Origin: Dictyostelium discoideum
Taxonomy: Eukaryota
Length of the DNA stretch: 64,000 nt
Assembly: GCA_000004695.1 (NCBI GenBank)
Contig: CM000150.2
Span: 4,096,001-4,160,000, forward strand
Reading direction: 5' to 3'
Below, piece after piece: positions 23,220 to 64,000 of this stretch; the first letter of the stretch is position 1, and the number at the start of each line of letters is the position of its first letter. Below the pieces are notes generated by a model. The model saw only the letters and a list, made by a program, of their open reading frames with translations. It was not told where the DNA came from and searched no databases. The position numbers and the translations under genes were made by a program.

Positions 23220-23223
<4 letters not shown>

Positions 23224-26200
23224 TTATAGAAAGTACTGAGTGAATTATTGTTTTTTTTGAGATGTTTAGGAAGTTCTATTGCGTGAAGAGGTGAGTTCCA
23301 TTGTCTGCTAAATTGTAATAGCTTTAGCGAGATTAGTGAGTCTAATTTATTTTGTTCTTCTGGCCGTTGCTTTGATTTGATTCTTAATGTTTTGTTTATA
23401 ACCGCTTGTGTCCTGTCCCATGCAGCTCTTTGTGTTTTAATTAGTTCACGTATGACTTGTTGTCTGTGAATTATTATTTCTTTTTCATCGTGAATGAGTT
23501 TATTTCTTTTGTGCCAGATTTTATCGAATATAATAGCTATTAAATTGGCTACTAGTGCAATTTGTAGATGGTTTAAAATCTTCACATTCCAGGTGTGAGT
23601 GGTGTGTCCACACTTAGTTAGGGTGTAGTTGAAGATTTCTTGTGTGTTTTTGATGTGGGCTTTGCAGTTGAAGAATATATGTTCTGAGGTCTCATCTTCC
23701 CCACACTGTTGGCATGGCATGTTGTATATTTTTGGTAGTGCTTTCAGTGTGTATCTCCATAATAGATCTCTACCTTTCATGTTTATTATTTTTTTGATTT
23801 CTTTAAATGGAAGGTGTTTGCTATTAATTTTGGTCATTATTTCTTTTTGGCCAGGAGTTGGTATGAATTTGTTGTGTTCAGGAGATTGAGTTGTCATCAT
23901 ATCTTCGTATATTTTTTTTAATTTTGGGAGGTGTTCGTAGTGTGTTTGTTTATTTTGTGGAGTTTTTAATTGGGTCCATGCTTGCTTGCATTGCCAGTGT
24001 AGTTGTAGTTGATTTTGTTTTGTTGTTGTTTTGTTGTTGTTGTTGTTTTTGAGTTCCTCTTCCCACAGTTTTATATATGAACTAGGAGTGTTACTTACTC
24101 TTTGGTGGAGGTATCTTTCGAATAACCATGCTTTCTGTGCTAGTTCTCTTGTCTTCAGGTTCCATAAGTTTAGGCCACCATTGATATAGTTGTTTTGTCT
24201 TCTTTGTAGTGAAAGAGAGTTTTTAGATTTTGTGTTGAAAACGAATTTTACGATGTTATTTTCAATACTATTGTGTTGTGGTGTGGTGTTGATGTAAGTG
24301 TGGAACGTTAACTGAGATAGTGCATATGTTTTTGCCATTATGAGTCTGCCCATATAGGTTGATGAAGTTGAGTTCCATGTTACTAGTTTAGCTCTGATGT
24401 TGTCTGAGATTGTATTGATTTTGGATTTGATACCCTTATTGTTGAAGTCAAAGCCGAGGTACCTTTCGTTTGATTTTATGACGGTGTATAGCGTTCTGGT
24501 GTTCCATTTGAAAGTGATACACGAGCATTTGGTTTGGTTTATTTTTGCGCTGGTTGCTTGGCAAAACTTCTTGATCCATTCATTCATGAGGAAATGGTCC
24601 ATAAAGTTGTATGCTATTGTTGCTGTATCATCGGCGAACTGTAGTATTTTAATGGTTTCTTTGGTTACACCATTGATGCAGCGGTCATTTATTATAGTAG
24701 TTGCCATGCATTCAACCACTAATGCGAAGATAGTGGGAGAGATAGGATCACCTTGTTTGGTTCCTCTTTTTGATGTAAAGCTTTTAGATAATGAGTTATT
24801 GATGTACACTGATGTTTCTGATTCATTGAGTAAGTTCATTATTGTGAGGACCATTTTGAGTGGTAGTTTTAGATGTGCAAGAGTACGTAGAATGGCGTTA
24901 TGTGAGATTGAATCGAATGCTTTTTCAAAATCATAAAATGTTATGATTGGTTCCATATCCTCTTTTGTGTTAATCTCTCGTTTTATTATTTCTATTGTTG
25001 AGTTTAAGGTGATGATGTTATCGTGCAGTAGTCTTCTTGGTACGAATCCAGTTTGGAATGGTGAGATTATTTTGTTTAAGAACTTCAGGATCCTATTGTT
25101 GATTATTTTCGAATAGATTTTGTAATCGACATTTAGAAGTGTTATTGGTCTATAATTATCCAGGTTGTTTGGGTCTCCTTTGTTTTTATATATAGTAATC
25201 AATATCCCTTGTTTGAAGTCCTTTGGGATTGTTGTGTTCCAGAAGTGATTGTATAGTTTTGATATTATTGGTAGAATTTCATTAATGTGGTTTTTGTAAA
25301 ATGTTGGAAGGAGTCCATCTTTACCAGGTGCTTTTCCTTCTTGTATTTTTTCAATGCCTAGTCTGATTTCATATCCTTCTATTGGTTGATTAATTTCGTC
25401 CAATATCTTTTGATCAATCCTTTTATTGAATGTTTTTAGGAGTTCGTGGTGAGTGTCTTCGTTGCATTCTCTCTTCTGGTACAGGTTCTCGTAATATCTT
25501 CTTGCTACTTCGAGGATATCCTCGTGTTTTGTTACCAAACAATTGTTGCTTGGATCTAGAATTTGAGGGATTTCATTTGTCTTTCTTTGGACTTTTAACC
25601 TTCTGGTTAAGTATTTTGATGGTGTTTCTTTGTTGTTGATGTGGGTGTTGGTTTGGTTTGCTTGTTTTATTCTTACTTGTTCCTTTAGAATATTGTTGAT
25701 CTCTTCTTTAAGGAAGATTGCTCTTGAATCTTTGGCTGTTTCGAGTTTTTCTGCGAGTTCTTTTAGTTTGTTTTTGGTTTTATTGCTTTCTCTAATTTCT
25801 ATATTAATTGACAGTTTCTTTATTTCATCTTTTAGTTTCAACCATTGTTCGCAAATGTTTAATTTGTACCATTTGCTGGTGTTCTCTTCGAATTTTTTAT
25901 TGTAGTATTTAATTGTTTTATTAATTTTGAGGCTGGTTGAATTCATTTTGAGAGTTTCTAGGTTTTGTCTCCATAGTCTTTCTCCTTTCTTTTGTTGCTC
26001 GTATTCTGGTATTTTTAATTCAATGATTACCATGTTGTGATCAGATTTTAATTTGATTTCCTTAGTAGTAACTATTGGGTTTAGATGGAGTATCTTCTTT
26101 GAGACAAAGACCCTATCGATGGTTGATTTGTTTCTTGGAAATGTGATTCCATTCTTAATTTCTGTAAATTCGAATTCGTCGAAGATTGTTTTAATATATT

Positions 26201-26441
26201 TGTTAAGGTTATTATCCACTGAACAGTCTACATTGAAGTCTCCAGTTATAATATCGCTGTGTAGTATTTCTTCTGTGAGATTTTCCTTATACCATTCATG
26301 TCTTTCGTTTGACTTTGCTGGGGCATAAATGGTTGTGCATTTGATCTGTGTTTTTGCAATCATCCATTCGGAAGATATAATTCTTTCGTTTATTGTTTTT
26401 GTTGTTGTTTTTATTTGGGTGTTGATGATGATTTGTGACAC
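23220..26441 (-). CDS. TRE5-A ORF2: apurinic-like endonuclease, reverse transcriptase and a C-terminal zinc knuckle.
   Basis: 1073-aa ORF containing ...ITGDFNVDCS... (EEP endonuclease), RT blocks ...PGKDGLLPTFYK..., LQFADDTATIAYN (YxDD-type) and CQQCGEDETSEHIFFNCKAH. Confidence 0.85.
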
Positions 26442-26653
26442 CCCTTGTCCTGTTTTATCAATTGGTGCGTGGTGTGTTATTTTGTTTTTATATTGTTGAT
26501 TTATTGAGTAAATTTTATTTGTTTTTATATTTGTTTCAGTTAGAAGTGCTGCGTCCAGCTTGTTGTTGTCTAAAACGGTGTTTATTATGCTGGCAGATTG
26601 GATGGTGTTGGATCCTTGGACGTTCCAAACACCTATTCTTATTGTGTTTTTCT

Positions 26654-27988
26654 TTATAGTTTTATTTGGGGTAGATTTTTATCTACCTTTTGAAGTTTCT
26701 GGTTTATTTTGTCTTCTAACTGATCTTTACTTTGTTCGTTGTGTTGTTGGTCTTGTGTGTTTGTGGGGTTTTTTGATTTATTGATTTGTTTTAGAATTTC
26801 CTTGTTGAAGTTGTCTATATCTTCATCCATTTTTGTTTTTATGCTTTTTTGTCCATATTCACCCAATTTTGGTTTGACTGGTGTTTTGTTGGTCTTGTTT
26901 GTTTTGTCTTGTTGTTTCTTTTTTGGTGTGTTTAACAATTTACTTGGTGAATCGATAATTTTCGATGGTGTACCATAGGTTGGGCTGAAACTCATGATAT
27001 GTTTTATTGGAGAGGAGAAGAACCATTGATTTGAAGGGATTGAAAGTGGGAATTCTATTTTTCTTATTGCATCAGTGTTTGGGCTGGTGAAGTCGAAGAT
27101 ATCATTTGCCTCTCTAAGTTTTTCTTCCGTTGTTAGTCCCTTTGTTTCGCCGTGTTGTTTTATTGGTGTATTGTATGGAGATGGTGGTTCGATAGGTTTT
27201 TCTGATTTTGTTTTAATTTCTTGATTGTTTATCGATTGTGTATTGATCTCATTCTCTATTCTTGTTAGTTCATCTACGTTTTCTAGTGATGCTTCTATTA
27301 CCTTTTGAGCTGTATCATCTAGGGCCATAAATGTTTTATCATTAGATGAGGATGTGATTGGTGGGATAATGATTGTTCTTTTTCCTTGTTTTGGTATTTG
27401 TTCTGATGTAAATTGTGGTTGTTGTTCATCTGATTGTTTTTTATTTTTGTTTTCTTCTTGATTTTCTGGTAATGAGGTTTGATCTCTCCATCCTTTGTTG
27501 GAGTGTCCAATTAATGTTAAATTGTCTAGTTCAATGATAGTGTCAAATTCTTCTACGACTCTTTTCACTGTTTTGATAATTAGAGTTTCGCCTTTAATTT
27601 CTGATTTAATTAGTTTACATCCTTCATTTTCTATTACCCATTCTATTTCTGTGAGTGATTTATACCAATCAAAATCTGTATACATATTTTTTGGTCTTAT
27701 AGTGGTTATAAATTGTCCTTTTAATTCTGCATCAAACATATTTACAAAATAGATTACTGTACTAATACTGTCTGTGAGAATTTTGAATGTATTATTACTT
27801 TTGATTAAAACATCTTTTTTGTCCAAACTTTTTTCTAAATCTTTTTTTATTTTATCGTCTGGTTCGTGATTGATGTTTATGACGTATTTGAATTGTTTTT
27901 TTTTTAATTGAGTTTTATCCACAATTTCGCTTATTTTTTGTAGGCATTTGTGTTGCTTAATATTTGTGGTGTTGTTTGTGATTTTCAT
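26654..27988 (-). CDS. TRE5-A ORF1 (444 aa).
   Basis: This ORF starts inside the B-module. Its N-terminal about 75 residues (MKITNNTTNIKQHKCLQKISEIVDKTQ...KSNNTFKILTDSIST) are identical to the partial second copy at 63771..64000. Confidence 0.8.
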   Translation of the reverse strand: MKITNNTTNIKQHKCLQKISEIVDKTQLKKKQFKYVININHEPDDKIKKDLEKSLDKKDVLIKSNNTFKILTDSISTVIYFVNMFDAELKGQFITTIRPKNMYTDFDWYKSLTEIEWVIENEGCKLIKSEIKGETLIIKTVKRVVEEFDTIIELDNLTLIGHSNKGWRDQTSLPENQEENKNKKQSDEQQPQFTSEQIPKQGKRTIIIPPITSSSNDKTFMALDDTAQKVIEASLENVDELTRIENEINTQSINNQEIKTKSEKPIEPPSPYNTPIKQHGETKGLTTEEKLREANDIFDFTSPNTDAIRKIEFPLSIPSNQWFFSSPIKHIMSFSPTYGTPSKIIDSPSKLLNTPKKKQQDKTNKTNKTPVKPKLGEYGQKSIKTKMDEDIDNFNKEILKQINKSKNPTNTQDQQHNEQSKDQLEDKINQKLQKVDKNLPQIKL

Positions 27989-28064
27989 TTTATTTTCTTT
28001 CTATCTTTTTTATTTTTCTTTAAAAAGTTAAAAATCTGGAAATTTTCTAATTAACTTGGGTTCC

Positions 28065-28107
<43 letters not shown>

Positions 28108-28110
<3 letters not shown>

Positions 28111-29175
28111 TCTTTTTTATATGAAAAATGAAATAATCAAAAAAAGAGATTGTTGTTGTTGTTTGTTTTTTTCGATCTGATTATTTTTTGCTTTTTTTTT
28201 GAAAATTTTGCTACGCAAAATTCTCAAAACGAAACAAATAATAAATTACAATAAAGTAAAAAGATGGCTTTTTAAAATAGTTTATTTATTTATTTATTTG
28301 TTTTTTAAGTCTTTTTTATATGAAAAATGAAATAATCAAAAAAAGAGATTGTTGTTGTTGTTTGTTTTTTTCGATCTGATTATTTTTTGCTTTTTTTTTG
28401 AAAATTTTGCTACGCAAAATTCTCAAAACGAAACAAATAATAAATTACAATAAAGTAAAAAGATGGCTTTTTAAAATAGTTTATTTATTTATTTATTTGT
28501 TTTTTAAGTCTTTTTTATATGAAAAATGAAATAATCAAAAAAAGAGATTGTTGTTGTTGTTTGTTTTTTTCGATCTGATTATTTTTTGCTTTTTTTTTGA
28601 AAATTTTGCTACGCAAAATTCTCAAAACGAAACAAATAATAAATTACAATAAAGTAAAAAGATGGCTTTTTAAAATAGTTTATTTATTTATTTATTTGTT
28701 TTTTAAGTCTTTTTTATATGAAAAATGAAATAATCAAAAAAAGAGATTGTTGTTGTTGTTTGTTTTTTTCGATCTGATTATTTTTTGCTTTTTTTTTGAA
28801 AATTTTGCTACGCAAAATTCTCAAAACGAAACAAATAATAAATTACAATAAAGTAAAAAGATGGCTTTTTAAAATAGTTTATTTATTTATTTATTTGTTT
28901 TTTAAGTCTTTTTTATATGAAAAATGAAATAATCAAAAAAAGAGATTGTTGTTGTTGTTTGTTTTTTTCGATCTGATTATTTTTTGCTTTTTTTTTGAAA
29001 ATTTTGCTACGCAAAATTCTCAAAACGAAACAAATAATAAATTACAATAAAGTAAAAAGATGGCTTTTTAAAATAGTTTATTTATTTATTTATTTGTTTT
29101 TTAAGTCTTTTTTATATGAAAAATGAAATAATCAAAAAAAGAGATTGTTGTTGTTGTTTGTTTTTTTCGATCTGA
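28108..29175 (-). repeat. Tandem array of the TRE5-A A-module: 5 complete 199-bp units plus a roughly 70-bp partial unit abutting the tRNA-proximal end.
   Basis: Unit starts on the plus strand (aagtcttttttatatg...) fall at 28108, 28307, 28506, 28705, 28904 and 29103, an exact 199-bp period. The same unit in reverse complement recurs at 62981-63658. Confidence 0.9.
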
Positions 29176-29225: not shown

Positions 29226-29298
29226 GCTCGATTAGCTCAGTCGGCAGAGCGTGGTGCTAATAACGCCACGGTCGCAGGTTCGATCCCTGCATCGAGCA
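29226..29298 (+). tRNA. tRNA-Ile, anticodon AAT.
   Basis: Manual cloverleaf: acceptor GCTCGAT/ATCGAGC, D-arm GCTC AGTCGGCA GAGC, anticodon stem TGGTG/CGCCA with loop CTAATAA, T-arm GCAGG TTCGATC CCTGC, discriminator A. Total 73 nt. Confidence 0.9.
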
Positions 29299-42890: not shown

Positions 42891-45800
42891 ATGAAAAATT
42901 ATTTTATTGTTTTTTTATTTCTTTTAAAACTATTATTATTATTTAATTGTATGCTTTTTTTATTTATTTTTTTAATTTTTAAATAAACAACCCATTTTAT
43001 TAATATTTTATTTTTTAAAACTTTTTTTTTTTTTTTTTTTTAAAAATTAATTTAATATAGGTTGTAATTCACAAGTTTCAATTGGAGAATTATACAATGA
43101 TGACGAAATAGATTCAAAATATTCTGATGGACAAGGTAACTACCACTTTAAATTAAATTATTTTCCAACAAGCACAAATTCAAATTACAATGGTGAAGAA
43201 TTTTTAAGTTTAGAAAAAAGTGCCTCCATAAGAGCATATAGGTTAGCTCAAAGTTGTACATTAATTGGCGCATCAGTTAAAATAGAGGATTGTCAATTCA
43301 TTGGACCATCTCCAGCCTATAATGGTCTCCCCTATTCAATCGTTATATCATCAGATCTAACATTAACAATTGCAGGTTCAATAAAAAATATTCCAATTCT
43401 TATTGTCCAAGGTCGTCTAATATTGCATCCAAATTATAATGTAACACTTTCATTCTATAAGATGCAAATCTTATCACGTGGTACTTTTGAATCTGCACCA
43501 AATCAAGGAGTTAATCATACTATCATTGTAGAAAGATCACCTAATGATCTCCAAATTGATCCATGGGATAGAAAAGATATTCCATCAATACTATCACTTG
43601 GTGGTAATGTTACGATTAGAGGTTTCGATTCAAGTTCAACATGGACTGGTTATAATGTAGCAAATCGAACATCATTCATTAGATCTTTTCCATTCACAAA
43701 TAATTTACCAATTATCAAGCTCTATGGTCATAAAAGTTTGTATACCGGTTTAGACCAATATATTAGATTGGACACTTATTTCACTGAATATATGAAAGAC
43801 TACGGCGTTGGTAAATATGCATATTCACCAGAAGGTAGCATTAATTGGCAGTATCAGAAACACGCCGTTGGTAATATATTAGTACATCCATGGAATAAAA
43901 ATGTATGGATCAAAGGTATGGGTAGTTGTTCAATGGTTTTCACTGGTTCATCAACTGTAGATATTCAAAATTCAGTAATCCTCGATTTTGGTGATACAAC
44001 ATCATCACCACTCAATTCAAATAGTAATATTCCAAATAGATATCCCATCACATTATATCACAATAAAAAGTTTGTCAAAATTGAAAACAATTGTTTTCTC
44101 CCAGCACTTTTCACAAGAGTACCACAACAAAGCTCAACACCTAGATCATTCATTGGTGCGATTCGTTCATTTGGTAATATCATTGGTAATTCATTCATAT
44201 TGTCTGAAACAAACATTGGTGGTACTGTCTATAGTATGAGTGGTATATCATTATTATATGGCACTGAACAATTTAATATTAGCTTCAATTCATTCATGTC
44301 AATTTATCCAAATAGCTCATTAAACAATCCAATTTCATCAAGTAGACAATATCCAGATAATATCGATTATATCAATAGTGGTATTATTACAACTTCACCA
44401 TACTCATTTTATGAATCAAATGTATTTGAAGGTGGATTCAAAGGTAGTTCAATTCAAATTATTCCATTACAATCAAGATCAACAATTGCTGGTTTAAATA
44501 GTGATAGATTATTAGGTGTTTACAATGGATATGAACAATCAAATCTCAATGATAAAGTAACCAATAGTATTTGGAATAAAGTTATTTTCAAAGATAATGC
44601 ATTCTTTGGTGAATCAGAATTTCGTGTTACATATCCAATGTCATTACAACCACCAATTAAAATCAACTTTTTAAGAGGTTGGCATATTAATCAAAGACCA
44701 TCAGATGTTTTACCATTTAATGAAGCAAATGTCGATTACTCATATGATTCCTCTTTTGTTGCCAATGGTTTAACTAAATACGCTTGGTATAGTTTTTCAA
44801 ATATTTTTTCAGGTAAATGTAATAGTGTTTCATTTTCCAATTCAGATTTATCATTTTCCACTTCATTATTTTCATCTTCATTCAAATGTAATTATATTTC
44901 TATCGTTGATTCAAAATACAAAATAAATTTACATGAAGGAGATAATAGTTCAACCATTTTTAAAAGATTCACTGATCAAGTATACTTTTCAAATCTTAAT
45001 GGTTCTAAAGATGCTAAAAGTTTGGCACAGTTAAATGAATTTACACCTTTCCTCAACATATCACCAAATAATAGTCAAGCAATAACTCAAAATAATTTTA
45101 CTCTTTCATTCCTTCCAAGTTCTATAAGTTCATTTGAAAGTTTAAATCAATCAATTGAAGCCATCGTTGATGGTGTTTATCAAAATGTTACATTAATTAC
45201 TTTGCCATTTGATCCAATTCAATCAATGCCTATTCAATTACCACCATCTACTTCTAGTTTATATACAGTGGTTTTATCATCGAAATTGTCACTACCAGCT
45301 AGTCTTAACTTGAGCCTTCCAGAAGTAGGATCTTATTTTGCAAGTACTTATCTTTTAGATAACAATGCAAAAAATTTCTACCTTGGTATCGATTTAGCAC
45401 CATCCGATAGTAATACACCACGTAAACTTTCAGTAAATGGTAAAGATTGGACAAGATGTGATTGGATTCAATCATTAAATAAATGTACAACCTCTGGTAT
45501 GTTCTCATTGAGTTCTGTTGATATTCCATTTGGAACTGGTAGTGGTGGTCAAGATGAAATTTCAATGATTAAAACTTACCTTGGTAATGATGTAACCAAT
45601 GGTATTCCAAGTACACTCAATATATCATTAGCAGGTCCACATTCATACAAGTTTTATTTATATTCATTTAATTCAGATTGGACAGATTCAATCATTAATC
45701 CAACACCATTATTTTCAATTAAAATCAATGGTAAATATCAAGAACCAATAACAAGATCAGCACCAATATATCTTCAATCTAAAAGATATGGTCCATTCTA

Positions 45801-45933
45801 TTGGAATAATATTAATTCAAATGAACAAGTTTTATCAATTGATTGGGCAACTGATAATATTAAATATTCAATTCCATTATCTGGTATTGAAATTTATTCA
45901 AGTATTCAAACTCCATTCTCAATCCCATATTAA
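42891..45933 (+). CDS. Secreted protein, uncharacterised. Signal-peptide exon 42891..42948, then 43061..45933. Ser/Asn-rich, with possible beta-helix-like repeats.
   Basis: MKNYFIVFLFLLKLLLLFN is followed by a GT..AG intron of about 110 bp that keeps phase. An 836-aa ORF then runs with many N-glycosylation sequons (NVT, NRT, NIS) and no TM segment. Function is not recognised. Confidence 0.65.
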
Positions 45934-46039
45934 CAAATGGTAAATCTTTTTTTATATTTGTTCCATTCACAGTGACTCAACGAAAAAATAAAAAATAAAA
46001 AATAAAAAAAAATATAACTTTTTTTAAAAAAAGTTTTGG

Positions 46040-46049
46040 TTGCGATATC

Positions 46050-46080
<31 letters not shown>

Positions 46081-46583
46081 ATTTGGCGATTGGTTCAACG
46101 GACGCTATCGAAGATGACCAAAGGAAAACTGATTGTCGATCTCGGTTTGAATATTCAAAAAATATTGAAAAAAAAAAAAAAAAATATGGAAATAATTTTG
46201 TGTAACCCATTATTTTCACTCCTCACAATAAAACATTTCATATCCTCTTTATTAATTTTATTATTTATATTTTTTTTTTTTTTTCATTGGTGTTGTTTCA
46301 GAATAAGATTCAAAAAAAAAAAAATTTTTAATTAACTTTTTTTAACTGTAAATAGAGACTGGTACCTGATGTGTTGTGATTGAGAGAATGATAAAATAAA
46401 TATTCGCTGTATCCTAACAACTTTTTGTTTATATTTTATAATGAAAGATTATAAAATATTATTTTACGACAAAAAAAAAAAAAATACTTTTCGTTTATTT
46501 TTTACAAATCACAGTAAAAAAAAAAAAAAAAGAAAAAAAAAATAAATAAAAAACATACTTTTCGTTTATTTTTTACAAATCAT

Positions 46584-46622
<39 letters not shown>

Positions 46623-47230
46623 AAAAAACATTGCCAAAGAATTTTTTGGTGGCTGGTTGAAAATGAAAGGGCGGTATTGAAGATGAATAATGGAAACTGA
46701 TTGTGGATCTTGGTTAGAATATTCATAAAAAAAAAAAAAAATTAAAATTAAAAAAAAAAAAAAAAGTGGAAATATTTTCGTGCAACCCATTATTTTCCCA
46801 CCTCCAATTTTTTTTTTTAAAAACGTTAAACATAACAAACTTATTTTCACATTCTTTATATTAATTTTATTTTTTTTTCATTGGTTTTTTTTTTGCTGGA
46901 TCAAGATTCAAAAAAAAAAAAATAAAAAAATTTTTTAAAAAAAAAAATAATTTAATAATTTGTTGACTGTTAATAGAACAAGTGTTTGCCTCAGGTGTGT
47001 TGTGATTGAGAATGCCGAAATTAATATTCGCAGCATCTTATCAACAAAAGTGGAACCACTTTTCGTTTATTTTTTACAAATTATAGAAAATTATAATTAA
47101 AATAATATTATTTTACGATAAAAAAAAAAATATTTAAAAGAAAAAAACTAAATTATATTTTTTTTTTTTTTTTTTTGTTATAAAATAATAGTTAATATAG
47201 CTAAATTATAGTTATAATTTTTAAAAAAAA
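46040..47230. repeat. Two tandem copies of a conserved non-coding upstream module (about 46040-46560 and about 46600-47230). A third copy is at 51600-52270, and each copy precedes a secreted-protein gene.
   Basis: Shared blocks are ggcgattggtt..cgaagatga..ggaaaactgattgtcgatctcggtttgaatattcaaaaaatattgaaaaaaa, tggaaata.ttt.gtgtaacc.attattttc.c, cattggtgttgttt.agaat.aagattcaaaaaaa, ..tcaggtgtgttgtgatt.ga..aatg and ttttcgtttattttttacaaat. They are interspersed with variable A/T tracts. Confidence 0.7.
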
Positions 47231-47231
47231 T

Positions 47232-47295
47232 ATGAAATTAATTTCAATAATTTTTTCCTTATTTTTAATAATCAATTTGGTTTTTTCTACAGGTA

Positions 47296-47327
<32 letters not shown>

Positions 47328-50300
47328 CAGAAAAATAAAATATTATTCAGTTTTAAATTATTTTAATAGTAAAAAAATCAATCAATTAAATAAATAAATC
47401 ACCGGAGGTACTCTTGTGTTACAAATTTGGTTTCACAATTATCATATTTTAATTTATTTTAGAATTTTTTTTTTTTTTTTTTTTCTAATTTTTTTTTTTT
47501 TTAATAATTTAAAAATAATAATAATAATATTAATATAATAATAAAAATCATTTAAAAGATCCAACAATTGTTAGTTTTAGAAAGCCAGTTGAAAAAGTAT
47601 ATCCAAGTGAATATTGTTTGCCATCTTTCACTATATTGATTAATTATCCAGATCCAATCCAATATAATTATCAATTAGGTTTATATGATAGGAGTGGAGG
47701 GTATGGTGGCAGCATGCCATCTGCCGTAAATGGAACCTTATATCTTTTTACACTTACACATAAAGTTCCAATTGGTAAAAATCAACCAGTTTCTTTGTAT
47801 ATCCAAGATACCTCAAAAAATCCATGGTTTACTTTTGATTTCAATAACTATACTACCTATGATTGCGATCCACTTCCACCTGTTACTATGAAATCAAAAC
47901 AAAATACTTGGATTAAAACTAGTGGCCAATATTCCAATTTAATTTGGTACCATATGGTTGAAGTTTCAGGTTTAGATAAATCAGCTCCATACGATGCTTT
48001 TACATGTAATGTTCCAAAGCCATTTATTTGTATGTTCCAAGAGTTTCTTAATGGTCCAAAACCAATCAATTTTTATTTCCAAGTTGGAATTTATACGACA
48101 GATGTAAACTTCGCCCCATTCAATGTAACTGTTACAGATAAACTAGGTAAAGTTTTACTTAATAGTCTTTTTGATGGTTTAAGTGCACCAGCAAACCCAC
48201 CTGTTTCAATTAGATCCTTAGAAAATTATCCAATCAATGGTTCAACTGTTACTAAAAATGAAATGGTTAATGATGCAATGTATATTATGAATATCATAAA
48301 CAAAAATGCTCTTTGTGGTATTTCATCACCAAAAGATTTTTTGATTTCAAATATATTAATCCCAGTTTTAGGTACACCTGCAAATGCTTCTTACATTGGT
48401 TTCTCATCTTTTAACTATCAAAATAGTCCAATTAAATCCCATGTTCAGATCATTGATAGTCAAGGTACAAAAAGAATTGGTATTGATAATGTGCTTTTTG
48501 TTAATCGTAAGTATTTATATTTTTATTTAGATTTTTTTTTATTTTTTATATATACTAATTATAATTTTGTATTTATTATTTTAAAATAGCAAAATCTTAT
48601 GATAATGTCATTGAAAATGTTCAAAATGCAACCTATGTTAAAAGCTCTAATATTAATAAAACTTTAATTAATATTAAGGCTGATGTTTCATTTAATCCAA
48701 AAGCTACTTTAACAAGTAGCTTTTCAACTTCTTTATACCAAACAGTGTTAGCATATCCATATGGTTATTCAAATGGTACAGTTAAATACCATTCAGTTTC
48801 ATTGTCATCTGCATCTCCAGAGTATTCCACTTCTTCAAATTCATATATAATTTTAGGCTCTCCATCTGAAATCGGATCCGGTAATTCATCACTAATCACA
48901 GTTAATCCAAATTCAACAATAGGTAAGAATTTATCTTTTATAAAATTACTTTATAAACATCGGCTTATATTAATCATTTTATCATATATTTTTTAATAAT
49001 ATTGTTATTATGCTTTAGAAACAAAAATACCACAACTTTTGAAAGTTGAAACCGTTTTCCTTTCATATGAAAAAGTACTTACCAGAGTTTTTGCTAAAGA
49101 TGTTGATTCTGGTATTTCATTTTTGTATTTATCAAATTTAAATAAAGTTTCCTCTGCCGATTTAGTATATGGTGATAATTTCAATGGTGTTTATGAATCT
49201 GTTGAAACATTTACCACCATGTATGGCAATGAAAGACCAACCGTTTCAATCTATGATAATGCTGGTAATAATATTCAATACAATAATATGCAACCAACAT
49301 TCGATACATCATTCAATATGATCCCTGAATACCCTGCTTACAGTATGTATTTTTTAAATAATATTAATTTCTTTTTAAAAAAAAAAAAACAAACTACTAA
49401 ATTATTAATAAAATTACTTTATTATAGCAATGATTAAAAACCAAGCCAATTTAGACCCATACACTTTCACTGGTTTTGAATTTAAGTACAATGATGTTGA
49501 TGTTTCAAATGGTCCATTCAATAATACTTTATGTATGAACTTTGCAGGTTCCAATAAAACAATGACTCCACGTTTCTTACAATTTTCTTTAGCATTAAAT
49601 CCGGAAAAGGCATCATTAGATAACGCCACACCAGGCTCATGGGATGAAGTCAAAGGTATGTTTTGTATGGATTTCCAAATTCCAGCAAGAATTTTCACTG
49701 GTGAATATACATATGCTGTTCTCATTCCACCATTCGTTTATGACTCTTACTATTTTGCTATTTCAGTTGGTAGTAAAGCTCAATTAAGAGTTAACTCAGG
49801 TTTTGCTGATCAAATGCCACCTATCATTACTGAATTCTCTTCATATCCATCAAATGCTGTTAATGTCACTCAAGATACTGTTGTCGGTTGGAATATTAGA
49901 ATTGAAGATTCTCCAAATGGTTTAGCAAGTGGTGAATTTAATATCACAAGTGATTTCGATTTAGAACCATATAGAATTAAGATTACTCCAGCCAATGCTG
50001 TATCTGGTGATATTTTCAGTTCTACATATCAATTAAGAATTCCAATTAAAGCAAACACTTGTAGATCTCAATCATTTAGAATTTCATCAGCATCAATTAC
50101 TGATACAATGGGTCATACTTCAGTTTTACCATCTTCTGGAAATGTTAATCCATTATATAAATTCTTAGAATCACCACACTTGGTTTTAAATATTACTTGT
50201 CCACAAGCTATCATCGATAATACCCCACCATCTTTAATTAGTTTCTCAACTGTTAGTTCAATCGAAGTTGGTGCTTATAAAGATTTTAGAAATGTTACAT

Positions 50301-51175
50301 TTACCTTCAAAACATCAGATTCTGGTTCTGGTATTTCATCAAGACACAATCCAAAAATCTATTTATCATCAGGTGAATTTGATCAAATTTCAAAGATTAG
50401 TACATTGGTATCCAATGTAAATGGTGTCGCTACTTATACCTGCACTATTGAATTACCATATGGTTATGGTTCATATAATGGAATTCTTGTTTCAATATAT
50501 GGTATTGTTGATAATAAATTAAATATTAATGGTTATTCATCAGTTGATCTCCAACAACTCGGTTTCCAAAATACAATTAAAGTTTTATATTCTGATGTAC
50601 CAGTACTTGATTACACAAGTTCAATTAAATCAACTGAATCATCATTGACTATCTATGGTCATAAATTTGGTATCGATAGAAGTAAAGTTACATTACAAGT
50701 TGATTATATGAAGGGTCAAGGTTGGAAGAATACAACAATCTCATTCTTTTCTGGTATTATTTTAATGACTGATAATATTACACCAACATCAACACCATTC
50801 TACGTTCGTGTTATTGTAGATGGTAAAATTTCAAATCAACTTTTAGTAGTTCCAATCATTGTTGGTGATAGTCCATGTAGTTATGAAGTTATTCAATCAA
50901 TAGTTGCTACTTGGATCGATAGTGAAAAATATCCATATCTTCAAGCATCTATCACTATTAAAAATACAGGTACAAGACCAATTAAAGCATTTAGTTTCAT
51001 TATTGAAAAAATTGCTTATGGTCAAATTTGGGGTGTTGATGCAAATGGTAATAATAGATACACTTTACCATCATATAATTTAATCATTAATCCTCGTGAT
51101 CAATATAGTTTCGGTTATATCATTCAAGGTACAACTGTTGCTGATCTCAAACAAGTCACTTATACTTGTCTTTAA
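47232..51175 (+). CDS. Secreted beta-repeat protein, tandem copy A. 5 exons (47232..47292, 47559..48506, 48590..48922, 49019..49342, 49428..51175), 1137 aa.
   Basis: The signal peptide MKLISIIFSLFLIINLVFST runs into a GTAAGT donor. Every junction is GT..AG with a consistent phase, and the total is 3414 nt = 1138 codons. There is no TM or GPI-like tail (...DLKQVTYTCL*). The repeats resemble those of the 2007..6857 gene. Confidence 0.8.
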
Positions 51176-52135
51176 AAATTTCAATTTAGTTTTGGAATAA
51201 TAAAAAAAAAAAACCCTTTTGGAGTGTAAAAATAAAAATAAAACATTCAAATTTGCCGTCAGTAAAAAAAAAGATTTAATTTTATTTATTTTAAAAATAA
51301 ATTTAGTATATATGAATAGAGTACTCAAAAATGAACAAAATGAATTCTTTAAATAAAATTAATTGTGTTTAATTATTTTTTATATTTTTTTATTTTTATA
51401 TAAAATATAAATATTTGTCTTTCATACTCTAGAGAATATTTATTTATTTATTTTTTTTTTTTCGAATAACGGCTAAAATTGGCATGGACAAATACCATCG
51501 CGGTATGAAAAAAAAAAAATAAAAAAAATAACAAAAAAAATTAAAAAATAAAAAGATGAAAAAATTATACGACCTATTCATCCTAATTAACTTAAAAACT
51601 CGTCATTCGGTGATTGCGATATCAAAAAAAAAAAAAAAAAAAAAAGTTAATAAATTAAAAATATGGCCCAAGAATTTTTTGGTGATTGGTTGAAAATGAA
51701 AAGACGGTATCGAAGATAACTAATGGAAAACTGATTGTCGATCTTGGTTTGAATATTCAAAAAATATTGAAAAAAAAAAAAAGTGGAAATAGTTTCGTGT
51801 AACCTATTATTTTCCCACCTCGAAATTTTTTAAAAATATTAAATTAAACATAAAAAACTTATTTTCATATTTTTTTTTTAATTAATTTTTTTCATTGGTG
51901 TTGTTTTAGAATCAAGATTCAAAAAAAAAAAAATAATAAAAATAAAAATAAAAATAATAATTTTAAATAGTTTGTGCTGACTGTTAACATAACAAGGGAT
52001 TTGACTCAGGTGTGTTGTGATTTGAAGAATGCTGAAATCAATATTTGCTGCATCTTATCAACAAAAACGAAATCATTTTCGTTTATTTTTTTTACAAATT
52101 ATAGAAAATTATAATTAAAATAATATTTTTTTACG

Positions 52136-52180
<45 letters not shown>

Positions 52181-52272
52181 GTATTTAAAAAAAAAAAAAA
52201 TAGTTTTTTTTTTGTAAAATAATAGTTAACAATAACCAAATTATAGTTATAATTTTTTATTTTAAAAAAAAT

Positions 52273-52490
52273 ATGAAATCAATTTCAATAATTTTTTCCT
52301 TATTTTTAATAATCAATTTGGTTTTTTCTGCTGGTAAGTTTTTTTTTTTTTTATTTTTAAAATAAATAAAAAATTATTTAGTTTCAAATTATTTTAATAT
52401 TAATGATTAATGAATCAATTAAAAAAATATTAATGGAATTAACTATTGTGAAATTACAAATTTGGTTTCACAATTATCATATTTTCATTC

Positions 52491-52522
<32 letters not shown>

Positions 52523-55500
52523 TTATTTTTCATTTTTTAAATAATTTAAAAATAATAATATTAATGTAAATTTTTTATTATTATTTTAAAGATCCAACAA
52601 TTGTTAGTTTTAGAAAGCCAGTTGAAAGAGTATATCCAGGTGAATATTGTTTGCCTTCTTTCACTGTATTGGTCAATTATCCAGATCCAATCCAATATAA
52701 TTATCAATTAGGTTTATTTGATAAGAGTGGAGGATATGGTAGCAACATACCATCTGCTGTAAATGGAACCTTATATCTTTTTACACTTACCCATAAAGTT
52801 CCAATTGGTAAAAATCAACCAGTTTCTTTGTATATTCAAGATTACTCAAAAAACCCATGGTTTACTTTTGATTTCAATAACTATACTACCTATGATTGCG
52901 ATCCACTTCCACCTGTTACTATGAAATCAAAACAAAATACTTGGATTAGATCAAGTGGCCAATATACCAATTTAGTTTGGTACCATATGGTTGAAGTTTC
53001 AGGTTTAGATAAATCAGCTCCATACGATGCTTTTACATGTAATGTTCCAGAACCATTTTATTGTGCATTCCAAGAGTTTCTTAATGGTCCAAAACCAATC
53101 AACTATTATTTCCAAATTGCAATTCGTAAAAGTGATGTAAATTTCACCCCATTCAATGTAACTATTACAGATAAACAAGGTAAAGTTTTACTTAATAGTC
53201 TTTTTGATGGTTTAAGTGCACCAGCAAACCCACCTGTTTCAATTAGATCCTTAGAAAATTATCCAATCAATGGTTCAACTGTTACTAAAAATGAAATGGT
53301 TAATGATGCAATGTATATTATGAATATCATAAACAAAAATGCTCTTTGTGGTATTTCATCACCAAAAGATTATTTTATTGGAAATACATTAATCCCAGTT
53401 TTAGGTACACCTTCAAATGCTACTTACATTGGTTTCTCATCTTTTTTATATCAAAATGGTCCAATTGAATCTCATGTTCAAATCATTGATAGTCAAGGTA
53501 CAAAAAGAATTGGTATTGATAATGTGCTTTTAATTAATCGTAAGTTTAAAAAATTATAATAATTATTTTAATCTTTTTATATAATCACACTAATTATATT
53601 TTAATTATTTTTATTATTAAACAGCAAAATCTTATGATAATGTCATTGAAAATGTTCAAAATGCAACCTATGTTAAAAGCTCTAATATTAATAAAACTTT
53701 AATTAATATTAAGGCTGATGTTTCATTTAATCCAAAAACTTCTCACACAAGTAGCTTTTTATCTTCTCAAAGAGAAACCGTCTTAGATTATCCATATGGT
53801 TATTCAAATGGTACAATTAAATACCATTCAGTTTCATTCTCAAAAACATCTCCAGAGTATTCCACTTCTTCAAATTCATATATGAGTATAAACTCTCCAT
53901 CTGATATCGGAAATGGTAATTCATCACTAATTGAAATTGCTACAAATTCAACTATAGGTAAGAATTAATATTATTATTTAAAAAAGATAAATTATTAAAT
54001 ATATTAATCATTCGATCATATTTATTATTATTATTATTATTCTTAAGATTCCAAAATACCACAACTTTTGAAAGTTGAAACTGTATTCCTTTCATATGAA
54101 AAAGTACTTGTCAGAATTTTTGCTAAAGATGTTGATTCTGGTATTTCATATTTGCATTCTACAAATTTGCATAAAATTTCCCCAGCCGATTTAGTATATG
54201 GTGATAATTTCAATGGTGTTTATGAAACTGTTGAAACATTAGCAACTATGTATGGTAATGAAAGACCAACCGTTTCAATCTATGATAATGCTGGTAATAA
54301 TATTCAATACAATAGTATGCAACCAACATTCGATACATCATTCAATATGATCCCTGAATACCCAGTTTACAGTATGTATTTTTAATATTAAAAAAAAAAA
54401 AAAAAAAAAAAAAACAAACAAAACATTAAATAAATTATTAATAAAATTACTTTATTATAGCAATGATTAAAAACCAAGCCAATTTAGACCCATACACTTT
54501 CACTGGTTTTGAATTTAAGTACAATGATGTTGATGTTTCAAATGGTCCATTCAATAATACTTTATGTATGAACTTTGCAGGTTCTAATAAAACAATGACT
54601 CCACGTTTCTTACAACTTCCTTTAGCATTAAATCCAGAAAAGGCATCATTAGATAACGCCACACCAGGCTCATGGGATGAAGTCAAAGGTATGTTTTGTA
54701 TGGATTTCCAAATTCCAGCAAGAATTTTCACTGGTGAATATACATATGCTGTTCTCATTCCACCATTCGTTTATGACTCTTACTATTTTGCTATCTCAGT
54801 TGGTAGTAAAGCTCAATTAAGAGTTAACTCAGGTTTTGCTGATCAAATGCCACCTATCATTACTGAATTCTCTTCATATCCATCAAATGCTGTTAATGTC
54901 ACTCAAGATACTGTTGTCGGTTGGAATATTAGAATTGAAGATTCTCCAAATGGTTTAGCAAGTGGTGAATTTAATATCACAAGTGATTTCGATTTAGAAC
55001 CATATAGAATTAAGATTACTCCAGCCAATGCTGTATCTGGTGATATTTTCAGTTCTACATATCAATTAAGAATTCCAATTAAAGCAAACACTTGTAGATC
55101 TCAATCATTTAGAATTTCATCAGCATCAATTACTGATACAATGGGTCATACTTCAGTTTTACCATCTTCTGGAAATGTTAATCCATTATATAAATTCTTA
55201 GAATCACCACACTTGGTTTTAAATATTACTTGTCCACAAGCTATCATCGATAATACCCCACCATCTTTAATTAGTTTCTCAACTGTTAGTTCAATCGAAG
55301 TTGGTGCTTATAAAGATTTTAGAAATGTTACATTTACCTTCAAAACATCAGATTCTGGTTCTGGTATTTCATCAAGACACAATCCAAAAATCTATTTATC
55401 ATCAGGTGAATTTGATCAAATTTCAAAGATTAGTACATTGGTATCCAATGTAAATGGTGTCGCTACTTATACCTGCACTATTGAATTACCATATGGTTAT

Positions 55501-56208
55501 GGTTCATATAATGGAATTCTTGTTTCAATATATGGTATTGTTGATAATAAATTAAATATTAATGGTTATTCATCAGTTGATCTCCAACAACTCGGTTTCC
55601 AAAATACAATTAAAGTTTTATATTCTGATGTACCAGTACTTGATTACACAAGTTCAATCAAATCAACTGAATCATCATTGACTATCTATGGTCATAAATT
55701 TGGTATCGATAGAAGTAAAGTTACATTACAAGTTGATTATCAGAATGGTCAAGGTTGGAAGAATACAACAATCTCATTCTTTTCTGGTATTATTTTAATG
55801 ACTGATAATATTACACCAACATCAACACCATTCTATGTTCGTGTAATCGTAGACGGTAAAATTTCAAATCAACTTTTAGTAGTTCCAATCGTTGTTGGTG
55901 ATAGTCCATGTAGTTATGAAGTTATTCAATCAATAGTTGCTACTTGGATCGATAGTGAAAAATATCCATATCTTCAAGCATCTATCACTATTAAAAATAC
56001 AGGTACAAGACCAATTAAAGCATTTAGTTTCATTATTGAAAAAATTGCTTATGGTCAAATTTGGGGTGTTGATGCAAATGGTAATAATAGATACACTTTA
56101 CCATCATATAATTTAATCATTAATCCTCGTGATCAGTATAGTTTTGGTTATATCATTCAAGGTACAACTGTTGCTGATCTCAAACAAGTCACTTATACTT
56201 GTCTTTAA
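52273..56208 (+). CDS. Secreted beta-repeat protein, tandem copy B. 5 exons (52273..52333, 52592..53539, 53625..53957, 54048..54371, 54461..56208), 1137 aa.
   Basis: Same exon lengths and phases as copy A, offset by 5041 bp. The last exon is near-identical to copy A, while exons 2-3 are clearly diverged. Confidence 0.8.
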
Positions 56209-56837
56209 AAATTTCAATTTAGTTTTGGAATAATAAAAAAATAAAAAAAAAATGAAAAAAAAAAATAAAAATAAAATAAAAATAAAAATAAAAAAAATAT
56301 AAAAATAAAAATAACACCATAATTATTTTTTTATATATCATTTTGTGTAATTTCGAGAGCTCTATTTTTATATTAAAAAAAATATATAAACATTCTTTTT
56401 TTTTTCATTATGCAAAAACAACAAAGTGTTATTATTACAAAAAATTTATAAAATTTTTTTTTTATTAAATTTTATATTTATTTTTATTTTTTTTTTCATA
56501 ATTATCAAATGTAGATATTTTTTTTTTAAAGTTAATAGTAATAATGGATAATGAAAAAAATGGAAATATCTTTTTCACAAACATTATCTCACATTTTCAA
56601 AAGAAAATTACCAAATCTTTTCAAAAAAAAAAAAAAAAAAAAAAAAATTAATGACATCGCATGATTTTTTTATTTATTGAAAAAAAAGAAGATATTTTCA
56701 TCGGGAATAATCAAAAACTTTTTTTTAAAAAAAAAATTTATTTTTAGTTTTATTTTTTTTTTTCTACACACCATTTTTTTTTTTTTTTAATAATTTTTTT
56801 TTTTTTTTTTTTATTTAATAATTTTTTTTTATAAACA

Positions 56838-62836: not shown

Positions 62837-62869
62837 TGTGATTTAATTGTGGAAAAATTAAAAAAATTT

Positions 62870-62942
62870 CGCCCAAAGGGGGGCTCGAACCCCCGACCAC
62901 AAGGTTAAAAGCCTTGCGCTCTACCGACTGAGCTATCTGGGC
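62870..62942 (-). tRNA. tRNA-Lys, anticodon TTT.
   Basis: Minus-strand sequence GCCCAGA TA GCTC AGTCGGTA GAGC G CAAGG CTTTTAA CCTTG TGGTC GGGGG TTCGAGC CCCCC TTTGGGC G. This is a full 73-nt cloverleaf with the anticodon loop CTTTTAA. Confidence 0.9.
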
Positions 62943-62980
62943 ATTTGTATATTTTTTTTTGAAACTATAGCAGTACTTGA

Positions 62981-63657
62981 TCGTTATACAAAAAAACAAA
63001 CAACAACAACAATCTCTTTTTTTGATTATTTCATTTTTCATATAAAAAAGACTTAAAAAACAAATAAATAAATAAATAAACTATTTTAAAAAGCCATCTT
63101 TTTACTTTATTGTAATTTATTATTTGTTTCGTTTTGAGAATTTTGCGTAGCAAAATTTTCAAAAAAAAAGCAAAAAATAATCAGATCGAAAAAAACAAAC
63201 AACAACAACAATCTCTTTTTTTGATTATTTCATTTTTCATATAAAAAAGACTTAAAAAACAAATAAATAAATAAATAAACTATTTTAAAAAGCCATCTTT
63301 TTACTTTATTGTAATTTATTATTTGTTTCGTTTTGAGAATTTTGCGTAGCAAAATTTTCAAAAAAAAAGCAAAAAATAATCAGATCGAAAAAAACAAACA
63401 ACAACAACAATCTCTTTTTTTGATTATTTCATTTTTCATATAAAAAAGACTTAAAAAACAAATAAATAAATAAATAAACTATTTTAAAAAGCCATCTTTT
63501 TACTTTATTGTAATTTATTATTTGTTTCGTTTTGAGAATTTTGCGTAGCAAAATTTTCAAAAAAAAAGCAAAAAATAATCAGATCGAAAAAAACAAACAA
63601 CAACAACAATCTCTTTTTTTGATTATTTCATTTTTCATATAAAAAAGACTTAAAAAA

Positions 63658-63694
<37 letters not shown>

Positions 63695-64000
63695 GGAACC
63701 CAAGTTAATCAGAAAATTTCCAGATTTTTAACTTTTTAAAGAAAAATATAAAAGATAGAAAGAAAATAAAATGAAAATCACAAACAACACCACAAATATT
63801 AAGCAACACAAATGCCTACAAAAAATAAGCGAAATTGTGGATAAAACTCAATTAAAAAAAAAACAATTCAAATACGTCATAAACATCAATCACGAACCAG
63901 ACGATAAAATAAAAAAAGATTTAGAAAAAAGTTTGGACAAAAAAGATGTTTTAATCAAAAGTAATAATACATTCAAAATTCTCACAGATAGTATTAGTAC
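62981..64000 (+). mobile_element. Second TRE5-A copy, 5' part only (the window ends inside it). It has 3 full and 1 partial A-module (62981-63658), an A32 tract, a B-module and the ORF1 start at 63771. It lies head-to-head about 40 bp upstream of tRNA-Lys.
   Basis: This is the reverse complement of the 199-bp unit seen at 28108-29175, with the period again 199. It is followed by cctgggaacccaagttaatcagaaaatttccag... and then ATG AAA ATC ACA AAC..., which is identical to the ORF1 start of copy 1. Confidence 0.85.

Follow-up and report, generated by a model that had tools for sequence, protein, structure and literature searches.

Two adjacent genes on chromosome 1 of Dictyostelium discoideum AX4, the paralogous tandem genes DDB_G0270058 (A) and DDB_G0270060 (B), raise the question of how one half of a duplicated gene can stay almost identical between the copies when the other half has diverged. 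The genes lie in the 64,000-nucleotide (nt) window analysed here (assembly GCA_000004695.1, contig CM000150.2, positions 4,096,001 to 4,160,000 of the forward strand; AX4 coordinates below are positions in this 64-kb window), which has 22% GC and intergenic DNA rich in homopolymers. A first-pass annotation of the stretch had proposed an old duplication homogenised at its 3′ end by gene conversion, with partial re-duplication, or a variable N-terminal recognition region under diversifying selection, as alternatives. Comparison of the pair with its counterparts in other strains and species leads us to an account that we consider very probable from the sequences, namely that conversion homogenises the 3′ 1.8 kb of these tandem paralogues and that selection has shaped their 5′ half.

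The duplicated genes

Self-BLAST of the window returned a single long direct repeat, 46592-51213 against 51624-56247, with 91.0% identity over 4686 columns. The period is about 5033 nt and in-register repeat families are spaced by 5029-5041 nt, which bears out the earlier description of a tandem duplication of about 5.04 kb carrying a five-exon gene. The duplicated segment of copy A (46592-51213, plus strand; self-BLAST and MAFFT profile) comprises some 640 nt of upstream sequence, DDB_G0270058 and 38 nt of 3′ flank. That of copy B (51625-56246, plus strand; self-BLAST and alignment) comprises the upstream region, DDB_G0270060 and likewise 38 nt of 3′ flank. The units are separated by a spacer of about 410 nt (51214-51624, plus strand; from the alignments) that has no counterpart 3′ of B; comparison of the 3′ flank of A with that of B gave low-complexity matches only and no homology.

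Gene A (47232-51175, plus strand; XP_646513, 1137 amino acids (aa)) has exons at 47232-47292, 47559-48506, 48590-48922, 49019-49342 and 49428-51175. Gene B (52273-56208, plus strand; XP_646514/Q55CG7, 1137 aa) has exons at 52273-52333, 52592-53539, 53625-53957, 54048-54371 and 54461-56208. Both models give complete open reading frames (ORFs) of 3414 nt whose translations are identical to the annotated proteins, and all eight introns have canonical GT..AG borders. Exon lengths (61, 948, 333, 324 and 1748 nt) and phases are equal in the two genes, as had been claimed; the 1748 nt of exon 5 consist of one split-codon base and 582 codons including the stop. Copy B can be equated with DDB_G0270060 because the published quantitative PCR (qPCR) primers for that gene match it perfectly, at 52610-52630 and 52720-52739, and match copy A imperfectly, with one and two mismatches.

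Divergence between the two copies is clearly non-uniform once the units are aligned. Ungapped identity is 83.8% upstream; 95.1, 93.7, 88.0, 91.7 and 99.1% in exons 1 to 5; 81.0, 67.5, 79.8 and 77.6% in introns 1 to 4; and 97.4% in the first 38 nt after the stop. In profile, identity is 65-90% in the upstream region and introns, 76-100% per 100-column window in exons 2-4 and 96-100% across 49410-51210, and it drops past 51213 to about 50%, which amounts to no homology at this composition. Beyond 51213/56246, where A/B homology ends, it is 56.7%. The gradient noticed in the first-pass annotation (exons 2 and 3 diverged, exon 3 the most, the last exon near-identical) is therefore real, and the diverged peptide pairs cited for it were found at aa 177-183 (ICMFQEF/YCAFQEF), aa 195-207 (QVGIYTTDVNFAP/QIAIRKSDVNFTP) and aa 374-395 (KATLTSS.../KTSHTSS...). 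The diverged 5′ half, exons 2-4 (47559-49342, plus strand; aa 21-556), holds 76 of the 83 A/B amino acid differences, with two more in exon 1; 78 of the 83 lie within aa 1-554. Exon 5 has 16 nucleotide and five amino acid differences.

Near-identity was ascribed earlier to the 582-codon last exon. It is indeed found there, but the bounds are different: the tract takes in the final 30 nt of intron 4 and stops only where the duplication itself stops, and therefore the exon is not its boundary. As delimited by alignment and by the tests of concerted evolution described below, the homogenised tract in copy A (49398-51213, plus strand) covers the last 30 nt of intron 4, exon 5 and the 38 nt of 3′ flank, with 17 differences in 1816 nt; coordinate mapping places the tract of copy B at 54431-56246 (plus strand). 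The copy-A tract includes an 863-nt block of perfect identity (49763-50625, plus strand; partner 54796-55658), which corresponds to about aa 669-956 and covers the Pfam domains DUF7035 and DUF7034. No random placement of an equal number of differences, out of 10,000, produced a run of that length. On this pattern we take the block to be the latest conversion in the AX4 lineage. A second identity island, of 194 nt, sits in exon 2 (48145-48338, plus strand, from the alignment; partner 53178-53371) and is probably either a small conversion patch or a highly constrained stretch.

Nei-Gojobori estimates of synonymous and non-synonymous divergence (dS/dN) between A and B in AX4 are 0.081/0.063 for exon 2, 0.110/0.139 for exon 3, 0.153/0.068 for exon 4 and 0.026/0.004 for exon 5. 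The per-exon comparison thus confirms that in exon 5 dS falls as well as dN, and codons ~690-900 contain no substitution of either class.

Exon 5 evolves in concert

A/B pairs were compared between AX4 and three assemblies labelled D. discoideum or D. cf. discoideum (ACTFIW, ACTFIR and ACTFIY; below FIW, FIR and FIY), together with single copies from ACTFIZ (D. cf. discoideum; FIZ) and D. citrinum. When the exon model was projected on ten discoideum-complex and D. citrinum genes, all the resulting proteins were the same as the annotated ones.

The two halves of the gene group in opposite ways. Over exons 1-4, A-type proteins of different strains are 87-96% identical and A and B only 75-91%. 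Over aa 691-930, AX4_A and AX4_B are 100% identical to each other and each only 94-96% identical to the copies of other strains, and FIY_A and FIY_B are 99.6% identical; over aa 931-1137, FIW_A, FIW_B and FIR_B are the same. Informative sites in the AX4/FIW quartet support orthology, within-strain and the other grouping 83, 5 and 3 times in exons 1-4 and 1, 31 and 0 times in exon 5; in exon 5 of the AX4/FIY quartet, orthology has no site and within-strain grouping 52. The switch falls at about position 1540-1700 of the coding sequence (CDS), that is, between the last ~120 nt of exon 4 and the first ~40 nt of exon 5. In neighbour-joining trees of exons 1-4, bootstrap support is 87% for an A clade that includes FIZ and 100% for a B clade, with D. 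citrinum outside. In those of exon 5, AX4_A with AX4_B, FIY_A with FIY_B, and the four FIW/FIR copies each group with 100% support.

Exon-5 dS within a strain is 0.026-0.045 (three strains; AX4 0.026), against 0.08-0.15 between orthologues, and nowhere in exon 5 is there a fixed difference that separates all A from all B copies. The longest identical run lies in a different place in each pair: CDS 2001-2865 (864 nt) in AX4, 2716-3102 (386 nt) in FIW, 1704-2259 (555 nt) in FIR and 2184-3000 (816 nt) in FIY. Runs of these lengths were reached in 0 of 10,000 permutations for each of the four pairs. FIW and FIR, close relatives, are already unlike in tract pattern. Homogenisation has been recent and separate in each strain lineage, which means that exon 5 evolves in concert, and we infer from these patterns that recurrent, ongoing interlocus gene conversion is what homogenises the 3′ 1.8 kb. 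With exon 5 clustering by strain and exons 1-4 by orthology, the proposal of an old duplication homogenised at its 3′ end has stood up well. Partial re-duplication, offered alongside it, is unnecessary because one event cannot yield strain-specific tracts.

A simpler reading would dispense with conversion altogether and let stronger purifying selection on exon 5 make a duplication of uniform age look mosaic. Exon 5 is certainly the more constrained part: D. citrinum and AX4_A are 90% identical there and 65-80% in exons 2-4, and the dN/dS ratio (omega) between orthologues is 0.13-0.26, compared with 0.22-0.41 in exons 1-4. Yet dS collapses too (0.026 in AX4 and 0.026-0.045 across strains, against 0.095-0.14 in exons 1-4), 863 nt pass without a difference, and the identity also spans the 30 nt of intron 4 and the 38 nt of 3′ flank. 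Orthologues from different strains are moreover less alike than the two paralogues of one strain. We regard constraint without conversion as extremely improbable; as far as these trees go, the strain-wise clustering of exon 5, at 100% bootstrap, already refutes it.

Near-identical repeats of 1.8 kb are difficult for Sanger or short-read assembly, and short Logan contigs contain just the exon-5 ORF, so one may ask whether the pair is an assembly artefact, either a collapsed or duplicated haplotype or reads copied between units. The chance of this is in our view practically negligible. Growing D. discoideum cells are haploid. The pair recurs in three more independent assemblies, on contigs of 2.1-4.8 Mb, in the same order and next to the same C2-domain gene, and the strains have A-specific and B-specific substitutions in common, which answers the concern, raised with the original annotation, that the copies might be assembly duplicates. 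Both AX4 proteins are also unchanged in a second accession, and the published B-specific qPCR primers worked.

Instead of non-crossover conversion, cycles of unequal crossing-over (two copies to three and back to two) or one recent partial re-duplication might have homogenised the copies. Copy number varies in the clade; FIZ carries A-type derived states and so has probably lost B; and an extra, diverged copy of the promoter-side upstream segment, of about 650 nt, is present at 45983-46628 (plus strand; repeat families and self-BLAST). The four pairs of the discoideum complex, however, share their two-copy architecture, spacer and flanks and yet differ in the positions of their tracts, which a single re-duplication cannot make strain-specific. 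The tracts are internal patches with both ends inside exon 5, and such two-sided patches imply gene conversion or a double crossover and not a single unequal crossover. Homogenisation by crossing-over or re-duplication thus seems to us quite improbable, and we retain gene conversion. The copy-number changes themselves (in FIZ, D. citrinum and D. purpureum, and the 45983-46628 segment) are probably due to unequal crossing-over.

The extra upstream segment lies directly 5′ of copy A's own segment and is 66-68% identical to both 46503-47231 and 51520-52272. It could be the trace of an earlier unequal exchange or of a lost array member. One piece of 80 nt, 46101-46180, is 94% identical to the copy-B version (51703-51782) and only 61% identical to the copy-A version.

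A signature of GC-biased gene conversion was looked for and not seen: GC content at third codon positions (GC3) of exon 5 is 13-17% in the duplicated lineages, the single-copy values being 14.6% in FIZ and 19.1% in D. citrinum. GC bias was rejected since GC3 does not rise in the duplicated lineages.

Other species and the age of the pair

The gene is present once in D. citrinum (L001 10001-13721) and in FIZ (L007 10001-14008), in both cases at the syntenic position, twice in D. discoideum and D. firmibasis, three times in D. purpureum, and once with a remnant in D. dimigraforme; the five-exon structure is kept as far as D. purpureum. The 3′-biased pattern recurs in these arrays. In the D. firmibasis pair dS falls from 0.35 in exon 3 to 0.01 in the middle of exon 5, and among the three D. 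purpureum copies it falls from about 1.0-1.3 in exons 3-4 to 0.17-0.27 in the middle of exon 5. In D. dimigraforme a decayed second copy, without about aa 608-1008, lies between the intact gene and the C2-domain gene (L003 14721-16641). Its 5′ parts are 73-80% identical to the copy of every species, and its CBM49 end shares 94.3% identity with the intact neighbour in D. dimigraforme, compared with 83-86% for the others, so that conversion seems to act even on this remnant. (Public annotation merges the remnant with the C2-domain neighbour into one product of 2024 aa.) The repetition of the 3′ bias in D. firmibasis, D. purpureum and D. dimigraforme suggests that conversion favours the 3′ exon wherever an array exists.

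The trees would date the A/B split after the divergence of D. citrinum. This date is a minimum because conversion resets divergence, and the array could be ancestral. FIZ was considered as a pre-duplication outgroup and rejected: its dS is equidistant from A and B, but it shares ten derived states with A and none with B, A and B sharing seven. On account of these ten states FIZ is probably an A orthologue that lost B, with later exchange of sequence between A and B.

Probable selection on the diverged 5′ half

The first-pass annotation had entertained a variable N-terminal recognition region under diversifying selection. Divergence of 4-6% at the amino acid level between strains did look high, and hyperpolymorphism was considered; it was rejected on finding flanking genes equally diverged (94-96% DNA identity). 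Between AX4 and FIW, DNA identity is 93.6% for gene A and 94.7% for gene B, and 94.4% and 95.7% for the flanking genes. The N-terminal half is therefore not hypervariable, given divergence equal to that of its neighbours and orthologue omega of 0.22-0.41 in exons 1-4 (0.22-0.31 for B orthologues). What does stand of the proposal concerns the paralogues: fixed differences between them are mostly replacements.

In exons 1-4, fixed A/B differences comprise 45 non-synonymous and 7 synonymous changes (45N:7S), against 131N:121S within clades (a comparison of the McDonald-Kreitman type; Fisher P = 2.1e-6); counted by codon they are 30:5 (P = 1.1e-4). We polarised site patterns by taking as the outgroup state that of D. 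citrinum where it agrees with D. dimigraforme or D. firmibasis. Changes confined to B number 26N and 1S and those confined to A 1N and 2S; A and FIZ share 9N and 1S, A and B 5N and 2S, B and FIZ none of either class, and FIZ alone has 17N and 16S. The B-only ratio differs from that of the FIZ branch (P = 1.1e-4) and, by a binomial test, from neutrality (P = 0.009 per site, 0.022 per codon). Of the fixed replacements, about three quarters are on the B lineage, in clusters at codons 174-201, 282-286, 377-387, 440-443 and 469-491.

These counts suggest that selection for divergence of the paralogues probably acts alongside conversion. Two readings of it are open to us: either B went through an adaptive burst, or amino acid differences have been lastingly preserved while small patches of conversion erase neutral ones. 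Both are forms of selection. In FIY an identical run overlaps the exon-2 island at 48145-48338, and within-strain sites cluster in exon 2 of the AX4/FIY quartet; if preservation is the right reading, the island and the FIY run would be such small patches.

Several points weigh against this account. Polarisation is imperfect, ten sites supporting (A,FIZ) and seven (A,B), which leaves the age of the duplication and some branch assignments uncertain. Under a neutral simulation conditioned on mutation types, 35.7 +/- 2.7 of the 46 changes should be non-synonymous, and 38-42 are observed; over all 46 changes the simulation gives P ~0.01-0.26, depending on how multi-hit codons are counted. Several of the changes do lie in multi-hit codons, and the codon-level binomial P is only 0.02. 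Small conversion patches that erase synonymous differences could also inflate N:S in the absence of a burst. Finally, 50-nt RNA-seq reads cannot tell A from B in exon 5, which partly confounds the expression values published for both.

An initial count of 42N:4S for a "B stem" was discarded: it mixed branches, since FIZ is not a pre-duplication outgroup. A firm claim of omega > 1 on this stem was likewise dropped, weakened by the spectrum-conditioned simulation and the codon-level counts.

Omega > 1 on the B stem is not robust, and the main rival is that constraint on a redundant B was relaxed for a time and then restored, the copies having diverged neither adaptively nor in function. Omega ~1 is compatible with the neutral simulation, and the changes are strongly skewed to one copy, as for a redundant duplicate. 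Second copies are also expendable elsewhere: that of D. dimigraforme has decayed, FIZ has probably lost its own, and D. citrinum is single-copy. Against this, B is intact in all four strains and is now under purifying selection (omega 0.22-0.31 in exons 1-4), it retains all 12 cysteines and 19 N-glycosylation sequons, it is the more strongly induced copy, and the robustly polarised 26N:1S is nominally above the neutral expectation at P = 0.009 per site and 0.022 per codon. Relaxed constraint is accordingly an explanation that we think unlikely but take seriously, and selection on the A/B differences is the reading that we carry forward.

The encoded protein and its expression

Pfam places DUF7743 at aa 447-563, DUF7035 at 682-814, DUF7034 at 823-944 and CBM49 at 1042-1121, all far over the cut-offs; precomputed domain matches add DUF8390. 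The CBM49 match (PF09478, aa 1042-1121) covers profile positions 2-79 of 80 and scores 80.7 bits against a cut-off of 23.4. The sole hydrophobic segment of either protein is N-terminal and signal-like, a search for a transmembrane segment in the two proteins found none, and there are 19-20 N-glycosylation sequons and 12 conserved cysteines. From this domain content A and B are most likely secreted extracellular proteins anchored to cellulose by the CBM49 tail.

The N-terminal head appears specific to dictyostelids and offers no functional lead, because a remote-homology search with the exon-2 peptide among 1.84 billion representatives gave three matches, all in its own family. A search of PDB sequences with the A/B protein gave no match. 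The full-length AlphaFold2 (AF2) model has a mean predicted local distance difference test score (pLDDT) of 38 and is unusable, with only CBM49 above 75. The exon-2 AF2 model is usable for aa 22-229 only; most blocks of this all-beta part have pLDDT of 70-89, and its Foldseek matches in PDB are confined to generic tandem Ig-like domains, at template-modelling (TM) scores of 0.2-0.3. The N-terminal region is thus predicted, on this model, to consist of tandem Ig-like beta-sandwiches.

A distant paralogue of A and B is encoded elsewhere in the window by the ORF at 4776-6857 (plus strand, 693 aa), which has DUF7035, DUF7034, DUF7949 and a ComC supersandwich domain and is 30% identical over aa 709-1032. 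It adjoins an ORF for an FNIP-repeat protein, 7221-8786. Our literature search found no paper on the DUF7035/ComC modules.

A literature search by gene name found a single paper that names either gene. In it, DDB_G0270060 has a log2 fold change (log2FC) of 3.57 on the non-pathogenic K. pneumoniae KpGe, with an average expression of only 0.24 log2 units (PMC7078664). On strain Kp21 its log2FC is 4.97, the first-listed up-regulated gene (PMC7078664 Table S2), and that of DDB_G0270058 is 3.43 (PMC7078664). DDB_G0270060 was confirmed by quantitative reverse-transcription PCR as a Klebsiella-specific marker, and was co-induced on K. pneumoniae with cxgS (cytochrome oxidase subunit VIIs), the flavohaemoglobins fhbA and fhbB, and sulfide:quinone reductase (PMC7078664). 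Both genes are very low in axenic cells and induced some 10- to 30-fold by Klebsiella pneumoniae. The set cxgS, fhbA, fhbB and sulfide:quinone reductase presumably represents something like a low-oxygen response, and the "Klebsiella-specific" induction may reflect depletion of oxygen by the bacteria. The Gene Ontology (GO) term "sexual reproduction" lists both genes, on a basis that could not be traced (PMC7078664). Neither DDB_G0270058 nor DDB_G0270060 was found in the life-cycle proteome tables of PMC12821622.

A possible mechanism and its relation to known systems

As the strain comparisons show, recurrent non-reciprocal exchange keeps the 3′ 1.8 kb homogenised, independently in each strain lineage, between the close of intron 4 and the limit of the duplicated segment. 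Conversion may be favoured in exon 5, which is long, intron-free and constrained and would offer hundreds of identical bases for heteroduplex formation. In exons 1-4 conversion is rare and patchy, and these exons may form a barrier: diverged by 6-12% and cut by four indel-rich AT introns, they would block heteroduplex extension. Selection against the erasure of head differences could reinforce the boundary near intron 4. On this scheme selection would have created, or would preserve, two different N-terminal "heads" on a shared cellulose-anchoring "tail".

A more specific version, which we think decidedly doubtful, makes the pair a two-headed system in which selection maintains the boundary, conversion resynchronises the cellulose-anchoring scaffold and the two Ig-like heads recognise different extracellular ligands. 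Candidate ligands might be bacterial surface or biofilm polysaccharides, suggested by the induction on Klebsiella, or components of the cellulose-walled sexual macrocyst, suggested by the GO label "sexual reproduction". On that reading D. firmibasis and D. purpureum would either have retained this arrangement in their arrays or have evolved it anew.

In more general terms, the locus is a new and unusually clean case of a known phenomenon, the mosaic concerted evolution of tandem duplicates in which conversion is opposed by selection. The human RHD/RHCE genes and the red/green opsin genes are further mosaic examples; conversion opposed by selection of the opsin type was reportedly modelled by Innan and Teshima. 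A literature search found no paper that describes such conversion for these genes or for Dictyostelium. A described case of the phenomenon, in Leptodactylus frogs, is that of the ATP1A1 paralogues, where selection on one sub-region counteracts conversion (bioRxiv 10.1101/2020.08.04.234435). As far as the part of that preprint drawn on here describes them, pairs of the ATP1A1 type resemble A and B in being tandem and partly homogenised, in having a diverged region made up mostly of replacements and in grouping by lineage or by orthology according to region. They differ in that protection in A and B extends over the entire 5′ half (four exons, ~540 codons) instead of a few sites, and in that the converted part reaches the end of the duplicated segment. 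A and B moreover belong to an amoebozoan of 22% GC, in which no GC-biased signature is seen.

Dictyostelium has other CBM49 proteins of the extracellular matrix or with cellulose binding, the products of ecmC/D/F/G/L, celB, st15 and staB, some of which have been shown to bind cellulose (PMC12821622, as are the comparisons that follow, for the portion of that article covered). Like these, A and B have an N-terminal signal peptide, a C-terminal CBM49 and predicted secretion. Unlike them, they carry an Ig-like N-terminal region, DUF7743, DUF7035, DUF7034 and DUF8390, which were not found described in that portion, and they are induced in growing cells on K. pneumoniae, whereas the matrix proteins are late developmental products. 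With the ComC-like proteins (ORF 4776-6857 and P0009-P0011) A and B share the DUF7035-DUF7034 pair, at 26-30% identity over aa 709-1032. They lack, by Pfam scan, DUF7949 and the ComC supersandwich domain (PF22933), both of which ORF 4776-6857 and P0009 carry, and end in CBM49; the ComC-like proteins have neither the A/B head nor CBM49.

The tgrB1/tgrC1 genes, in the sections of PMC12745789 on which this comparison rests, are likewise adjacent and encode extracellular proteins with Ig-like folds and fast-evolving regions. They are, however, hyperpolymorphic between strains, whereas A and B, with ~94% DNA identity, match their flanking genes (94-96%), have orthologue omega of 0.2-0.4 and lack a transmembrane segment. 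A and B are thus not, on this comparison, a polymorphic recognition locus of the tgr kind.

The locus offers a clean natural case of conversion and selection acting on different halves of one duplicated gene, in a haploid, genetically tractable host for which knock-outs, domain swaps and experimental evolution are routine. Because 3′-biased homogenisation recurs in three other Dictyostelium species, it could serve to estimate how often conversion occurs, how long its tracts are and at what divergence threshold it stops in an extremely AT-rich genome. Trees built from whole genes will misdate the A/B duplication. The biology of the protein is also accessible, with a predicted cellulose-binding CBM49 tail and transcripts among the most Klebsiella-induced.

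Neighbouring features and strain differences

The minus strand carries a non-LTR (long terminal repeat) retrotransposon at 22929-29175, in which 23220-26441 is a reverse-transcriptase ORF and 26654-27988 an ORF1-like one. Units of 199 nt repeated in tandem (28082-29175) make up its 5′ end and stop 50 nt upstream of a tRNA-Ile(AAT) gene at 29226-29298. An inverted, 99%-identical copy of this 5′ end begins at 62990 (62990-64000), 46 nt upstream of a tRNA-Lys(TTT) gene at 62869-62943 on the minus strand. The position and anatomy of the element fit the tRNA-gene-targeted TRE5-type elements of D. discoideum.

The gene that lies upstream of copy A (43359-45957) has in FIW an inverted paralogue of 82-87% DNA identity, which sits downstream of the C2-domain gene (L002 20946-23528). 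FIR has at the same position and on the same strand a gene of near-equal length (L008 20736-23815; 1921 vs 1922 aa). The corresponding position in AX4 holds the tRNA-Lys gene and the retroelement end, and the window ends before any such gene. Four assemblies, GCA_054859355.1, GCA_054859385.1, GCA_054859205.1 and GCA_054859235.1, were also set against the window for overall divergence. In ordinary flanking genes, the DNA of assemblies labelled D. discoideum is about 4-6% diverged from that of AX4 (measured directly for ACTFIW), and dS between AX4 and the four strains is 0.07-0.17, which is large for one species; such distances suggest that the strains in these assemblies are deep lineages or cryptic species.

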